64,000 nt of DNA from Nitrospirota bacterium (GTDB lineage Bacteria; Nitrospirota; Nitrospiria; Nitrospirales; Nitrospiraceae): contig CAVPGK010000016.1 of the NCBI GenBank assembly GCA_963703955.1, positions 64,001-128,000 on the forward strand. Direction: 5' to 3'. Both the position numbers and the translations under genes were made by a program. Under the pieces are notes generated by a model that was not told the origin of the DNA, searched no databases, and saw only the letters and a program-made list of their open reading frames with translations. Shown here in pieces: positions 40,768 to 46,706 of the stretch. Position 1 is the stretch's first letter. Every line of letters starts with the position of its first letter.

Positions 40768-40962
40768 GTGGTCTATTGGGTCAAGGTCGTCTTTACCGAT
40801 AATCAGGAACTGTTGGTCAAGGATGCTATTCGACATACGATCAGCGACGACATGGAAGTGCTCGAAGTCGATACTGCCAAAGAAGTCACGATTATCCCCA
40901 TGAAGCAAATCAAGTACATCTCCTGCGATGCCACGGTTTTCGCAGGTAAAACAAAGAGTTAA
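40768..40962 (+). CDS. Small conserved-looking beta-rich protein (64 aa); integration target
   Basis: GAGGTG RBS + GTG; MVYWVKVVFTD...IPMKQIKYISCDATVFAGKTKS. A homologous second 3' end lies at 44581-44636. Confidence 0.8.
   Translation: MVYWVKVVFTDNQELLVKDAIRHTISDDMEVLEVDTAKEVTIIPMKQIKYISCDATVFAGKTKS
40907..40922 (+). repeat. attL core
   Basis: aaatcaagtacatctc, identical to 44581-44596. Confidence 0.8.
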
Positions 40963-41384
40963 TTTTCAGATTCCTCGTTACTCCCGGTTTTACCCCCGGT
41001 TCGCTGCCCGATTTTTCCATCCAGCACCGCGTCCAGCCGATCCACCGCCTGCCTGTTCCCGCCGGGGATGAGATGCCCGTAGATGTCCACCGTCACCCTG
41101 ATCGAGGAGTGTCCGAATTGCTCGGCTATGTATTTCAGGTTTTCGCCATTGGCGATCAACCGTGATGCGAACGTGTGGCGACAGGCATGTAGCGTGAGCC
41201 GTTGGACCTGAGCCCGTCGGAGCAGGGGAAACCAGAGGCGATAGCGCAAGTAGGTCTCCGCTATGTAGTACGGCTGCTGTCGAGTGCCGCCGAGGTTACC
41301 GGGGAAGAGAGTCTCCGGTTGTGGTTCGCCGAGTGCGGCGGCTTCAAGGTCCTGTAGCGCGATCCATTCCTTCAAGGCTTCCAT
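40959..41384 (-). pseudogene. C-terminal fragment of a tyrosine integrase
   Basis: LHACRHTFAS...GENLKYIAEQFGHSSIRVTVDIYGHL (HxxR, GH, catalytic Y); N-terminal and core-binding domains missing. Confidence 0.88.
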
Positions 41385-41553
41385 GACTTATGAGCCGGAA
41401 CGCGTCGTCCAGGCAGTGGTCGATTACTGGCGATCCCGTGCACTCCAGGCCGAAACAGACTTGGCGCGAGCGAATAGATGGATTAGTGATGCGACCTGCG
41501 ACATGGATGCCGAGTTGGAGAAGATGGCGCAGGAAATCGAGGGTGAATCATGA
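41383..41553 (+). CDS. Short phage-like hypothetical protein or fragment
   Basis: MTYEPERVVQAVVDYWRSRALQAETDLARANRW...; begins exactly where the integrase fragment breaks off. Confidence 0.4.
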   Translation: MTYEPERVVQAVVDYWRSRALQAETDLARANRWISDATCDMDAELEKMAQEIEGES

Positions 41554-41689
41554 GGGTGAAGCCGACACGACCGAGACCGAAGGGTAAAAAAGATGTCCGA
41601 TCATAACCTGCCTGTACCTATTGAACTCCCGCATCGGTTGTGAGCAAGCTGCTGTCCGTTAGCTCCATCCAGTTGGGCGTCAATTCGTC

Positions 41690-42151
41690 TCACGTCACTG
41701 AGTTCTTGACGAAGTATTGCTCCCACGCGTCCAGTGCTTCCGCCACGAAGTCTTCCGCGGCCACGCGCCGATAGGGAAGCTGAATCTTCAGCCGCCACCA
41801 AGGGCCTGCGCTCGCGGATAGGTGCGCTGGCATGACAGAGACGACCACTTCCGTAGTGGTTGGCGGATGCTTCACGTAGTCAGTGCGTTCCAGGTCGATG
41901 GTAATGTGTTGGCTGGCGTTTGCCAAATCTCGGCACACCCTCAGAGACTCGTGGAGCCCCAACGCATGTGTTACTGGCGTATTCAAATCGGGACGGTAGA
42001 CTTTGATCCAGTCCCACACGTGGTAAGTGGTCACTGCAAAGTTGAAAAGAGCTGAGCGCACGCTGGCCTCGTCCTTAGCGGACAGAGCCGACACCAGAGC
42101 AGCGCCATCTTGCCGAGCCTTGCCAAGTAACTCAGAGGGGGTTGAGTACAC
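41690..42151 (-). CDS. Hypothetical cargo protein (possibly HEPN-like helical fold)
   Basis: AGGAGG RBS + GTG; ALFNFAVTTYHVWDW...CRDLANASQH. Confidence 0.65.
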   Translation of the reverse strand: MYSTPSELLGKARQDGAALVSALSAKDEASVRSALFNFAVTTYHVWDWIKVYRPDLNTPVTHALGLHESLRVCRDLANASQHITIDLERTDYVKHPPTTTEVVVSVMPAHLSASAGPWWRLKIQLPYRRVAAEDFVAEALDAWEQYFVKNSVT

Positions 42152-42431
42152 GGCCTTCAGCCACCTCCTCGCTTCGACATCAAAATAAACGTCAAATATC
42201 GAGTCATAGTAAACTACCCCACTATTGACTGATCGGCATAGCTCCCCTTCCCACCGCGATTACTCTCTCACTAAGTATTATCCGCCCTCAGGTTATGCTT
42301 TTGCCGCAATGAGGGTAATTCATATCCGTGCTCATAGTACAGCCCTCCTATTTTGACAGGTTGTAATTGAGCGGGAGGCTCTGGGACGATGGACGAATGT
42401 CATCACCATCAACCAACGGGAAACTGGTGCC

Positions 42432-42701
42432 ATGCTGAATGATGCGCCCGTGACGATAGCAGTTTGGAATCAGTTGGTGTGTCTGGTGCGGGAGCCTAGC
42501 CAGCGGCGACCAGGCCAGCTTGCCTGGTGGGTCAGGCTCACGTTTGGCACGTTGGTCCCAAAACGGTTCGGGCCCTTTGGCTCGGAGGACGAAGCCATAC
42601 AGGCGTTTGAAGCCATCACCGCCGTTCTCGAAAGGACTCTGAAAGATGCAGCCTGTGATGCCGCGAACTCGGCGGGATATACGTTTGTCGAGGAGGTTTA
42701 G
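42432..42701 (+). CDS. Small hypothetical protein
   Basis: 89-aa ORF downstream of a TTGACA-containing repeat. Confidence 0.5.
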   Translation: MLNDAPVTIAVWNQLVCLVREPSQRRPGQLAWWVRLTFGTLVPKRFGPFGSEDEAIQAFEAITAVLERTLKDAACDAANSAGYTFVEEV

Positions 42702-43116
42702 GCCAACTACGGAGGTCGCACGTTGAAGGATCGCACCGTCAAGGTCTACGTCTCGCGAAGTGAAATAAGGAAAATTCAAACCCGAATACAGCAATTGAAA
42801 TTCAAGAACCGAAGCGCCTATCTGCGATGGCTCCTGGACGCCGAGGTCAAGCAATCCAAGTCAGGCTGCCCCGCGCCCGCATTTGGCTCAGGATGATTGA
42901 TATCCTAGCCCACACTCCAGGGGATGATAGCGTCCGGCTCATCTTAGAGCCTTCCAGGCCCGCCTACACGGCGATATTTTTTGCAGGTACCTGCAATTGC
43001 TGAACGTCATCAGCCGGGCTCTGCCGAAAGCGGACGGCTCCTGTTTTGACAGGTGCTATTGAGCGGGTAGTTGTGATATGCTTATAGGCTTGTGACAATT
43101 AACCGAGGAGACGAGG

Positions 43117-43353
43117 ATGAATACTGTGGCTCATCAGGACATGGAGTTATTGCAGGAAGCCTTTGCCATTATCGACAACAAGTCGGAGCAAGTACCGACG
43201 CGAGAGCATTTGGTCAACCTGCACGCGTACTACTTCCGCAAGCTGGTGAAGATTTACGAAGGCATGCGGAACATACAAATGATTGTCGATGGGCCGGTTT
43301 TGAATTTGACTGCTGAGAGCAACCACACACAAAAGGGGAAGGCGAAGTCATGA
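43117..43353 (+). CDS. Small hypothetical protein
   Basis: GAGGAG RBS; 78-aa ORF downstream of the second repeat copy. Confidence 0.55.
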   Translation: MNTVAHQDMELLQEAFAIIDNKSEQVPTREHLVNLHAYYFRKLVKIYEGMRNIQMIVDGPVLNLTAESNHTQKGKAKS

Positions 43354-43618
43354 ACAGCGTTTGCCGCCAAGACTGCCGTTCTCGACGGGGCGCTGTGGGA
43401 TGAACGGATGTCATCAACCAAAAACGAAGGAGGTCCATGTGCGGTATGCATGGAAGGGTAACCCGAATGATGGCAGAATCCGGCTTTACTTCTCCCCGGA
43501 TGAAATAGCGGGCCGCCAAAGAACGGATGCGGCAACTTGGGATCGGAACGTTCAGCGACTATCTGCGATGGGTGCTGAAGGGCGAGGGTTGCAAAGAGGT
43601 CAGGCGGGAGGTCGATGA

Positions 43619-43807
43619 ATGAGCGTATTCGAGATACTGAGCGGTGAACGAGAGAAGGTCCAGCGGCTACGGGATGCGCTGTCGGACCTCTTGGCCATGT
43701 GCCCGTCGTTGCCCAAACCGGGTACGGGTGCGGAACATATCTGGAATCAGCGAGTCGCCGCCGCTGAGGCCATCATGAAGTTGACGGAAACGAAGCACAA
43801 TGGTTGA
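43619..43807 (+). CDS. Small phage-like hypothetical protein
   Basis: GGAGG RBS; 62 aa, helical (RLRDALSDLL...AAAEAIM). Confidence 0.5.
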   Translation: MSVFEILSGEREKVQRLRDALSDLLAMCPSLPKPGTGAEHIWNQRVAAAEAIMKLTETKHNG

Positions 43808-44054
43808 GCAAACCAACCAGCCCACTCCGCGCACGCAGTTGCCACAGGATTAACGATCAGCATGCAGTCTGCTATCCCTCTCTTTTCAAATCCCCTTCCT
43901 TCCTTCGTGCGATCTCCCTCAACATTTTCCTTGACGGTTTCCTGATAGGACCGCTAGGTTTCTTCGGTAGAGGTAACCGCACCTTCAACTTCCGTTTCAT
44001 GGTTCGATGAATGCTCTAAACTCCGGCGCAAAGCAAAGATAGGGAGATTCTTAA

Positions 44055-44273
44055 ATGCATCAATGGCGCACTCTTAACAATCTTCAATTTCGCCTTGTTT
44101 CTTATGAAAGCCCTGGAACTGGCTGGATTCCTGCGGCTCAGATTCGGGAATCCACTGAAGGCATAGAAACCATAACACCGATTTGTGGCGACACTACTAA
44201 GCCTTTTGCTTCCGAGGAAGAGGCGAATAATGCTGCATTGGCAATGGCGATAGAATGGATGAACTCAAACTGA
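44055..44273 (+). CDS. Small hypothetical protein
   Basis: GGGAG RBS; 72 aa ending F.SEEEAN..A...A..W. Confidence 0.55.
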   Translation: MHQWRTLNNLQFRLVSYESPGTGWIPAAQIRESTEGIETITPICGDTTKPFASEEEANNAALAMAIEWMNSN

Positions 44274-44580
44274 CCACCTACACTTCATGCGACTGCTCTT
44301 GAAGGCGGAGGATCAATCCAAACCGCCTGTCCGGCACACACGGTTAGGATTAACGATCCGGGGATGAGGTGGACGTTGCTTTCTGACGGTCATCCAAGGA
44401 ACCACGTATGAGCATACGTAATTACGTCAGTCCCAGTTTTACTCCCGGTTCAGAGTCGTTTTTAATCACAATTAGGACCCTGTGAGACAGTCTAGGATTG
44501 AGTGAGAATAAGGCTCAAATGTTCTGATAAACCTCTCACTTATAATCTCTCTTAATCCCACTCAATCCCCATGCCTGTCA

Positions 44581-44636
44581 AAATCAAGTACATCTCTTGC
44601 GACGCAACGGTCTTTGCTTCTAAACCAAAGGCGTAG
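44581..44636 (+). repeat. attR core plus displaced 3' end of the 40768 gene
   Basis: Encodes IKYISCDATVFASKPKA* versus IKYISCDATVFAGKTKS* at 40909-40962. Confidence 0.85.
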
Positions 44637-44759
44637 GTTGCGGCCACTTCATTATTACGGTTCAAGTCACGGCTGGAGCCGCGGGCGACGCGCTCACGCA
44701 ATCAGGACTCTCGCCGCAACTGTAACGTGGTCGGCTTGAAAAACTAAGGTCGAGTCTGC

Positions 44760-46109
44760 CTAATCAGTGGACGTGTGAGCGGCGGAGGGATCGAGGGGCA
44801 GGCGAAGATAAAATGTCGTGCCCACACCTTCTTTGCTTTCGACGGTAATCCGGCCTTTATGCGCATCCACGACATCCTTGATAATCTTCATCCCCAATCC
44901 CGTCCCGCCGGCTTTGCGGCTGAAGATACGAGACGTAAACAGACTGTCGCGGACCTCAGGGGGCATCCCTCGTCCGGTGTCGGCGACCGACACGATGACA
45001 TCGCCGGTGGTGCCGTCCACATGCCCTCGAACGGTCACCATGCCGCCTGCAGGCACCTCAGGGATCGCATTGTTCACCAGATTATAGAAGGCATTATAGA
45101 GACGGCGTTCGTCGGCCTGAATAATCGGCAACTGATCCAAATCGTCGCTCAGGAGTCTGACTTTCTTTTCTTCCGCGATCATGCGAAGGATTTTTAATAC
45201 GTTCACAACCACATCAGCTATCCGGCAGGATGTGAACTGAGGCGGCGTGCTGAGACCTTTGACACAATCGGCAATTTCCTTCACACGATCGTTGATGCGT
45301 TGCGCGCCATCACTCACCATCGAAATTACGTCATCGCACAAGGCTTGACTCTCCTGTGCCTTCCCCGCATTGGTCTTCGCGACCTCGACGACGAGATCGT
45401 CAATCTCTGACTTCAGCACTCCGGCGCCGCAGGTAATCGGCATCAACAAGTTCTTGACATCGTGACTGATATCTCCCAGGACACGAGCCACCTCCGCCAG
45501 CTTGACATCCTCTTGCAAGCGCGCATGCTCGATCACCGTTGCCGTGAGCGCGGAAATAATAGACAGGATCGAGAGGTCATCACGGTTGAGCTGTCCTTCT
45601 CGTTTGTTCATCACTTCAATGACCCCGATGGCCTCTCCTTCCCATTGCTTCAACGGCAGCACAATCATGTCTTGCGTCTGATAACCCGTCGCTGAGTCAA
45701 TACTGGGACAATGACGCCCATCCTCTTTGGCGTTTGCAACCACCTCCGGTTCACCCGACTTAAAGACAGAGCCGGCGAGGCCATGATGCCAGGGAATCCC
45801 AGTCCCACGAGCGACAGGCTTTTCCCCGATCGAGTGGCGAAACACCAGTTGCTTTGATTCTCGATCCGCCAGGAGCACAGACCCTGTCTCTGCATTGACG
45901 AGTTCCAACGCAGTGCGTAGGGCGTGCTCAATCAGCTCGTCGACATCGGTATATTGAAAAAGGGCTTGGCAGATATGGCGAACCGCCTCAAGCTCGCGCT
46001 CGCGGGCGCGAAGCCGTCGATCTTGCTGTCTTCGATAGGCGGACCGCCGTTCAGAAGAAGGTGACAAGGGAAAGGGCGCCTGTGTATCGGAAGGCATTAT
46101 CATTACCAA
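44760..46109 (-). CDS. GAF-domain sensor histidine kinase
   Basis: GAF (GLAGSVFKSGEP, IGVIEVMNK); H-box SHDVKNLL; N, G1 and G2 boxes (NLVNNA, DTGRGM, GGTGLG). Confidence 0.93.
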   Translation of the reverse strand: MVMIMPSDTQAPFPLSPSSERRSAYRRQQDRRLRARERELEAVRHICQALFQYTDVDELIEHALRTALELVNAETGSVLLADRESKQLVFRHSIGEKPVARGTGIPWHHGLAGSVFKSGEPEVVANAKEDGRHCPSIDSATGYQTQDMIVLPLKQWEGEAIGVIEVMNKREGQLNRDDLSILSIISALTATVIEHARLQEDVKLAEVARVLGDISHDVKNLLMPITCGAGVLKSEIDDLVVEVAKTNAGKAQESQALCDDVISMVSDGAQRINDRVKEIADCVKGLSTPPQFTSCRIADVVVNVLKILRMIAEEKKVRLLSDDLDQLPIIQADERRLYNAFYNLVNNAIPEVPAGGMVTVRGHVDGTTGDVIVSVADTGRGMPPEVRDSLFTSRIFSRKAGGTGLGMKIIKDVVDAHKGRITVESKEGVGTTFYLRLPLDPSAAHTSTD

Positions 46110-46343
46110 TACGGTATTGGGTGGCTGAAAGGTCTTAGCACCAAGAGTTGGACCGTGACGTAATACTAGTATTTCTTACTGACGAAGGATGGGCAGAAAG
46201 CCTCATCTAGAACCTAAATCAGAAGCTCGACTGTACGCTGTTAACCCTCGGGTTTTCAAGTGGAGACCCCGCCCGTCAGCCTTGACTCTACAAACGGGTA
46301 ATGGCAAGTTTTTTGTCCCAGGGCCTCGTAGCGGAAAAGAGTC

Positions 46344-46706
46344 ATGAAAACGATTCTTGTGATTGACGACGATCGCGACGTGAGAGCCATCATCCGAATG
46401 CGGTTGGAGGCCGCGCGATATCGCATTCTTGAAGCCTCCGATGGCAACGAGGCGTTGGAACTCGCCCAAAATGAGCATCCCGACCTTCTACTCTTGGACA
46501 TGACGATGCCCGGCATAAGCGGCATTGAAGTTGTTGAACGTTTGCGGGGGGATCCGGCAACGGCGCATATTCCCGTGATGTTGATCAGCGGCGCGGAAGA
46601 GATTGCCGATAAACAATTTGCCCTGACCATCAAGGCAAATGATTATCTGGTCAAACCGATCGATGGGAAAGAACTCTTGGAGAGAGTTCGGAGTATTCTG
46701 GGGTAG
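46344..46706 (+). CDS. Single-domain response regulator (CheY-like)
   Basis: ILVIDDD, PDLLLLDMTMPGISG, DYLVKP. Confidence 0.93.
   Translation: MKTILVIDDDRDVRAIIRMRLEAARYRILEASDGNEALELAQNEHPDLLLLDMTMPGISGIEVVERLRGDPATAHIPVMLISGAEEIADKQFALTIKANDYLVKPIDGKELLERVRSILG

Follow-up and report, generated by a model that had tools for sequence, protein, structure and literature searches.

The window analyzed here is a 64,000-nt stretch of a Nitrospirota bacterium (GCA_963703955.1, contig CAVPGK010000016.1, positions 64,001-128,000), and all positions below are those of the window. Downstream of proC, it carries a gene for a 64-amino-acid (aa) hypothetical protein, termed here the target gene, whose 3′ end is present a second time 3,674 bp farther on; between the two copies lie a relic of a tyrosine integrase gene, small open reading frames (ORFs), and tandem arm-like repeats (Table 1). 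These 3,674 bp are very probably a decayed integrative element whose tyrosine integrase recombined at the heptamer CAAGTAC within the target gene and whose spare, synonymous 3′ end completed the gene, likely keeping the target protein intact.

Table 1. Features at the target gene, in order of position in the window (attL and attR, left and right attachment sites of the putative element; TPP, thiamine pyrophosphate)
Feature	Position	Strand	Remark
Host target gene, 64 aa, now with element-type tail AGKTKS	40768..40962	+	
attL identity block	40907..40956	+	16 bp exact, 50 bp at 82%
Predicted 7-bp overlap, CAAGTAC, from the third base of I48 through K49 and Y50, with an imperfect inverted repeat around it	40911..40917	+	
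Putative element-supplied replacement 3′ end (codons 51-64 and stop)	40918..40962	+	
Tyrosine integrase relic, C-terminal 141 aa	40959..41387	-	Pfam Phage_integrase PF00589, E=2e-11
Tandem arm-like repeat, P′ side, +69 from K49	40981..41001	+	per-site p 1e-6
153-aa cargo ORF	41690..42151	-	no Pfam, NCBIfam or PHROG family
89-aa ORF (homologue in the G023 element) and 57-aa ORF	42432..42896	+	57-aa ORF: NikA-like, E=0.009, below cut-off
Cassette of small ORFs, parts of it at six other places in the same genome	43117..44278	+	
Tandem arm-like repeat, P side, -156 from right core	44430..44450	+	repeat type as in G023 (there -155)
attR: second core copy (CAAGTAC at 44585-44591), displaced tail ISCDATVFASKPKA and stop	44581..44636	+	
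Second P′-type tandem arm repeat, at +68 behind displaced tail	44654..44674	+	score 20.4, per-site p 7.5e-7
GAF histidine kinase (-) and response-regulator-like ORF (+), between displaced tail and TPP-enzyme gene	44760..46706	-/+	

A gene end present twice

The direct repeat aligns 40907-40956 with 44581-44630 at 41 of 50 nt (82%), the best identity of any 50-mer in the 10-kb region; 12 mononucleotide shuffles reach 29-32. It opens with an exact 16-bp block (40907-40922 = 44581-44596), of which there are only two exact copies in the 3.3-Mb assembly of this genome (G000; 82% complete). Left and right copies differ in codons 52-59 by six third-position changes (tcc/tct, gat/gac, gcc/gca, gtt/gtc, ttc/ttt, gca/gct), all six of them synonymous, an outcome with a chance of about 1e-4 for random changes. 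Amino-acid differences are confined to codons 60 (G/S), 62 (T/P), and 64 (S/A), the left tail reading ...FAGKTKS versus ...FASKPKA on the right. Both the duplication of the last codons and its third-position pattern had been described in a first-pass annotation made from the sequence alone, and both are borne out. That annotation had also named, as a finding that would speak against an element, a second copy belonging to a complete paralogous gene; the second copy is instead a fragment matching residues 41-63 only and not part of a full paralogue. A shared ATCCCCATG lies just upstream of both copies with a 3-nt offset; its presence there was regarded as coincidental, since it overlaps a motif internal to the element that genome G023 has as well.

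An integrase clade adjoining the target gene

The integrase relic does abut the left copy, as first noted, and matches only residues 260-397 of an intact 398-aa relative, about two thirds of it having been deleted. Its relatives were sought in a genome collection that holds one genome of its own genus and 371 genomes of its family, in 185 of which the target gene was detected; only part of those 185 loci was inspected. Searching the 371 genomes with the relic returned 26 other matches at E≤1e-28. All 14 of the best matches from other genomes (E<1e-33) lie within ~0.3 kb of the 3′ end of the target gene; 10 of the next 12 adjoin tRNA-His, -Thr, or -Arg genes, and three paralogues in G000 itself adjoin tRNA-His, -Cys, and -Arg. 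In a midpoint-rooted tree of 30 rows, 9 of which are fragments, a 100/100 branch separated the 16 gene-adjacent integrases from 14 others, 12 of which are beside tRNA genes. Intact integrases next to the same core, for which the first-pass annotation had suggested a search, were found as full-length proteins of ~400 aa in G023, G099, G100, G112, G123, and G124. The integrase stop codon overlaps that of the target gene in the window, G023, G099, G100, and G123.

A second tail copy is located 2.7-12.2 kb downstream on the same contig in 10 other genomes, the copy in G096 being frameshifted. Using a 28-nt degenerate core pattern, which gave 0 control matches, two matches were obtained in 19 of the 167 genomes with any match; 15 of the 19 represent left/right-end pairs, and four (G025, G111, G368, and G391) are duplicates or second gene copies. 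If a genome counts as occupied when it has an integrase beside the target gene, arm repeats, or a second copy, the tally is at least 21 genomes from 8 genera. Metagenome loci were ranked by likeness to a query ending in the element-type tail, and the best 80 of 329, near-duplicates included, were considered: 77 were scorable, with an arm repeat or integrase in 32; an integrase is present in 18 of the 80.

Sixteen clean empty sites, none of them from the species analyzed here, have a single tail with a convergent TPP-enzyme gene directly behind it, the match to that gene beginning 15-73 bp from the target-gene match. Relatives without the insert thus do not keep both tails, another observation that the first-pass annotation had named as one that would speak against an element. 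Among left ends, 16 of 19 in genomes and 30 of 32 in metagenomes encode a 64-aa protein with the tail form x-x-K-x-K-x, as against 0 of 16 clean empty sites, where tails vary and the protein is 62-69 aa long. The proposal that the target gene is a bacterial attachment site (attB), at which an element brings a replacement 3′ end, holds for the window and extends to the whole integrase clade.

Elements with both ends on one contig span ~1-12 kb and, apart from that in G023, carry metabolic or unassigned cargo, with another gene set in members from genus g31. The G023 element (L035, contig C1, about 2860-2872 kb) is a 12.2-kb satellite-like element with an intact integrase, a primase-like protein, a small terminase, and a major capsid protein; it is interrupted by an apparent IS21-type transposase pair, recognised by eye. 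Integrase-less mini-elements of ~1-2.4 kb with both attachment (att) ends kept occur at L169, L175, and L101 (G126), the first two holding one or two cargo genes between their ends. Such mini-elements are possibly mobilised in trans.

Predicted crossover and arm-like repeats

Across 14 left/right pairs, identity is 12-14/14 from the third base of codon 48 (position -1) through +8, and only 4/14 at -2 and ≤7/14 from -5 outward. Judged from this sequence comparison, the crossover region is likely the 7-bp CAAGTAC: the 16-bp core proposed earlier stands as a block of identity (40907-40922), but not as the crossover, which is likely limited to 40911-40917. A crossover at this heptamer would replace 14 codons and the stop.

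Over codons 49-58, 14 pairs identified through DNA similarity show 30 synonymous differences and a single non-synonymous one, against a random expectation of ~21% synonymous. This count omits frameshifted right copies (G096 and L204) and decayed ones (L196, L200, and L226), and was preferred to a count of 36 synonymous versus 3 non-synonymous changes, which was dropped because some of its pairs came from an amino-acid-fixing pattern. Four of the left/right pairs are identical over codons 49-58, suggesting that host sequence can serve to renew the tails of elements.

The arm-like repeat consists of a tandem 9-bp unit with a period of 12. In a profile trained without G000, it occurs at +69/+70 from K49 in 13 of 13 training left ends, with the window conforming at +69, and most right ends have it between -138 and -181. 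Elsewhere in G000, four further strong tandem arm-like repeats occur (C16:180261, C12:114787, C16:158661, and C6:167064), the first of them just past tRNA-Thr, which suggests relics of sister elements targeting tRNA genes.

The target gene and its predicted protein

The target gene was detected in 51 of 61 sampled relatives of the order and, in a sample of the phylum (n=201), within the order only (23 genomes). Residues 1-58 are 57-95% identical across the order, and the tail is variable. Where its database relatives carry a source name, they are annotated as hypothetical proteins of Nitrospira/Nitrospiraceae. The 64-aa protein was assigned to no family by NCBIfam and PHROG scans or an Atlas search, and nothing resembling a promoter or terminator consensus was detected around the gene. 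Many genomes of two large genera, complete ones included, gave no match to the gene. In genus g10, three loci (L141-L143, from G212, G241, and G009) encode a divergent small protein of 56-60% identity with SHRLSEDQEFIY replacing RHTISDDMEVLE, and most genomes of that genus lack a detectable copy.

A fold prediction from 148 sequences (predicted local distance difference test, pLDDT, 89.6), which superseded one from 13 sequences (pLDDT 46), has five strands (residues 3-9, 14-26, 31-36, 40-44, and 48-53), followed at 56-59 by a short helix. Residues 60-64 are of low model confidence (pLDDT ~52 for 61-64) and variable in hosts. Among solved folds, those of DUF903 proteins, Hfq, and Rof come closest (best E=8.5e-3), and weak matches to Pfam ROF were obtained for 56 of the 148 members (best E=0.011), none of them above the Pfam cut-off. 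The target protein gave zero match to the Pfam Hfq signature and zero significant sequence match in a profile search of solved structures. Hfq itself (PF17209) was detected in 0 of 5 family genomes tested, the same search being positive in 5 of 14 control genomes.

In a four-copy model, residues 35-44 of one chain pair with 48-56/58 of the next, with at least 86% contact agreement and pLDDT ≥75 across runs. The self-association score of 0.44 barely exceeds the 0.42 mark and may reflect likeness to solved Sm rings; the best control reached 0.08. In a calibration that fits this case only roughly, 20 of 30 solved pairs attained the mark, as did 1 of 23 single chains. Modeling thus predicts an Sm/Hfq/Rof-like fold for the target protein, and the predicted crossover falls within the last strand of that fold.

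The displaced tail and a probable older element

The first-pass annotation took the right-hand SKPKA as the ancestral host tail that integration had swapped out. The exchange of C-terminal residues is upheld, but SKPKA is probably a previous tail, left as the scar of an earlier element, because it has its own arm repeat at +68. A two-step history is favored as reasonably probable, in which the native tail was replaced by that of an older element, whose far end was lost, and the present element then displaced the older tail. The arm repeat at 44654-44674 is of the other subtype and ranks as the fifth best site in G000, and the right tail ASKPKA has the element form x-x-K-x-K-x. Tail-plus-arm ends similar to the SKPKA end occur at L169, L175, L209, and L218, with 75-78% match to the last three over ~90 bp. 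At L169 and L175, NKPKA and arms form a true left end, with a different tail at the right end. Comparable states are found elsewhere: in G112, the right copy is followed by another arm repeat and by what remains of an integrase; at L209 and L212, where the element is gone and host genes follow directly, a tail of element type is still present together with arms. Tails appear to be replaced serially. The kinase and regulator genes, which add ~2 kb between the displaced tail and the TPP-enzyme gene, are possibly cargo of the older element.

The reading as a scar is not without difficulties. No third core copy was found in G000 with a relaxed pattern (in an assembly 82% complete), no integrase remnant was found to the right of the SKPKA tail, the right tail ends in GCG-TAG without an overlapping integrase stop, and K-x-K-x tails without a detectable arm exist, namely SKPKG in G086 and QKAKG or QKSKT in several g31 genomes. 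The lack of a third core copy and of an integrase remnant, the non-overlapping stop, and the SKPKG tail of G086 speak for a single integration into a gene with SKPKA as its native tail, the arm repeat behind it being unrelated or due to chance. This history is rather unlikely: it has to accommodate an arm match lying 1-2 bp from the canonical +69/+70, the likeness of the whole tail-plus-arm stretch to other element ends, the extra 2 kb before the TPP-enzyme gene, and a tail form seen in none of the clean empty sites. No empty site ending in ...SKPKA, of the kind that the first-pass annotation had proposed looking for in relatives, was found.

Proposed mechanism and alternatives

In the proposed mechanism, an integrase clade related to integrases adjoining tRNA-His/Thr/Arg/Cys genes would use a protein gene as its site, recombining at CAAGTAC inside codons 48-50 of the target gene. 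The cut would fall inside the predicted last β-strand, which is the predicted subunit interface, so that only element sites (attP) faithfully re-supplying residues 51-58 would persist, while residues 59-64 would be free to vary. The length of the element tail would be kept close to 64 aa by the 69-70 bp that separate core and arm and, for several members, also by the overlap of the integrase stop with the gene stop. Decaying elements would leave their tail on the host gene, such that element tails become fixed; in the window, an older element would have left SKPKA and its arm repeat, and a younger one would have displaced SKPKA with GKTKS. The window element is likely immobile, because two thirds of its integrase are gone, unless an integrase is supplied in trans.

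Selection on the protein offers another explanation for the uniform tails: a standard lysine-rich K-x-K-x end might alter the binding, regulation, or degradation of the Sm-like protein. Element tails are uniform across several genera and outlast element loss, and empty-site tails are diverse in length; however, core-arm spacing and the overlapping integrase stop account for length and last codon without protein selection, and the last five residues are the ones that vary freely in hosts, so adaptive conversion is considered doubtful. Equally doubtful is a broader scenario, in which the clade moved from tRNA genes to a gene encoding an unrecognised Sm/Hfq-like oligomer in nitrifiers of the Nitrospira family without detectable Hfq, repeatedly rewrote the tail of that protein to K-x-K-x, and changed the function of the protein through the tails so fixed; if true, the tail of a host regulator would have been authored by mobile DNA.

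It is highly improbable that the repeat is no att site but was left behind by tandem gene duplication or illegitimate recombination and later split by unrelated mobile DNA: whole-gene duplicates do occur in the family (G368, 12.5 kb apart, and G111), but homology starts at the same base in 14 pairs, the distances of the arm repeats are fixed on either side, the left copy is invariably followed by an integrase of one clade, and a decaying pseudogene fragment would not differ synonymously only. The G368 locus (L087, C6:232542-245269) holds two full target-gene copies with tails AKKQG and AKKPG, a duplication and not an att pair.

Several points weigh against the decayed element and its proposed mechanism. 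The occupied genomes are kin and not independent, with 12 of 21 in genus g31, and the metagenome loci are biased by the element-type tail of the query and by near-duplicates among them. The integrase tree has several fragments and no rooted outgroup, and does not give a direction from tRNA genes to the protein gene. The target gene is conserved but, being undetected in several complete genomes and present in only 185 of 371 family genomes, probably dispensable, and its protein has zero fold matches at E≤0.001. The collection has one genome of the genus, and no empty site of the species and no excised circle were seen: no attB/attP joint was present among the joints listed for contigs of 8 public runs with low, patchy cover. 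Three runs have near-identical contigs that stop at 40917 or 40928, at the onset of the differences between the tails, a weak hint that was not used. Viral contigs contained neither the core pattern nor a relative of an intact integrase.

Relation to known systems

The locus is of the icd/e14 kind, with an integrase beside the att site, core repeats in coding sequence, a restored reading frame, and empty sites in relatives. Phage 21 at icd is of the same kind as e14. One report describes e14 at Escherichia coli icd as having the complete gene on one side of the element and a displaced C-terminal piece (icdC) on the other, with mostly synonymous differences (PMC13626634), and another describes attP as carrying the replacement sequence at icd and tRNA genes (PMC10111431). 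The window matches e14 in having an element inside a protein gene, with the intact gene and displaced fragment at opposite ends. In contrast to e14, the target encodes a 64-aa hypothetical, predicted Sm-like protein in a different phylum, the elements are small and island- or satellite-like, and the repeat block is ~50 bp rather than the up to ~250 bp at icd. The restoration of the gene in the manner of icd, drawn on by the first-pass annotation, is retained with one refinement: the examined intact relatives are small island- or satellite-like elements, and none is a full lambdoid prophage.

In PMC4482086, the dusA-associated integrases (DAIs) are one integrase family tied to one protein gene in many genomes with varied cargo, and the island re-supplies a β-strand. 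The clade described here resembles DAIs in its tie to one protein gene and in the re-supply of a β-strand, which is a predicted one here, and differs in that DAIs replace the 5′ end of dusA, whereas the Nitrospira clade replaces a 3′ end and has nearest relatives adjacent to tRNA genes. A 7-bp exchange segment and doubled motifs at fixed distances are described in PMC10111431 for satellites resembling phage-inducible chromosomal islands (PICIs). The 7-bp crossover predicted here and the doubled, co-oriented motif on both sides of the core are like those of HE-PICI and fis PICIs. The G023 relative shares with PICIs a primase-like protein, small terminase, and major capsid. In contrast, motif and target differ, and no primase, terminase, or capsid genes were found among the scanned ORFs of the window, so that its element fails a test of PICI gene content. 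For the protein, modeling predicts a five-stranded Sm-like barrel resembling Hfq, Rof, and DUF903 proteins, with a tentatively predicted contact between strand 39-44 and strand 48-53 of adjacent subunits; the target protein model has no N-terminal helix, and no significant sequence match to solved structures was obtained.

The mechanism is thus already known from icd/e14 and dusA, and the target gene and integrase clade are unreported in the literature found. No paper on the target site was found, and TIGER/Islander and ProBord databases or supplements may record it. Nitrospira is not mentioned in the accessible parts of the main texts of PMC13626063 and PMC10111431, and one supplement of PMC12884075 names a Nitrospira genome but does not list the core of the CAAGTAC site.

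These results add a precisely mapped integration hotspot and an integrase clade in the Nitrospira family. The site is a candidate landing pad, which could be of use because relatives hold intact integrases and att sites. Few genetic tools exist for Nitrospira-family nitrifiers. The analysis also draws attention to a small conserved protein that has been overlooked, a candidate Sm/Hfq/Rof-like factor whose predicted last strand is preserved by mobile elements, and provides an apparent natural case of serial tail replacement, with element-derived gene ends fixed in hosts.

Cargo of the window element

The window and G023 elements have in common arm type, arm position, and one ORF. The 153-aa ORF has close look-alikes in the Atlas (score 0.97), which are hypothetical clusters from Pseudomonadota and other phyla. 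The cassette comprises unassigned ORFs of 62, 72, and 78 aa, and parts of it recur at ~79-92% DNA identity in G000 at C6:173.9-175.2k, C10:282.9-283.8k, C11:163.1-163.8k and 274.8-275.3k, C13:215.4-215.6k, and C19:5.4-6.2k. Some of these recurrences are near tRNA-Ser or recombinase genes, and public contigs show such parts in shuffled order.

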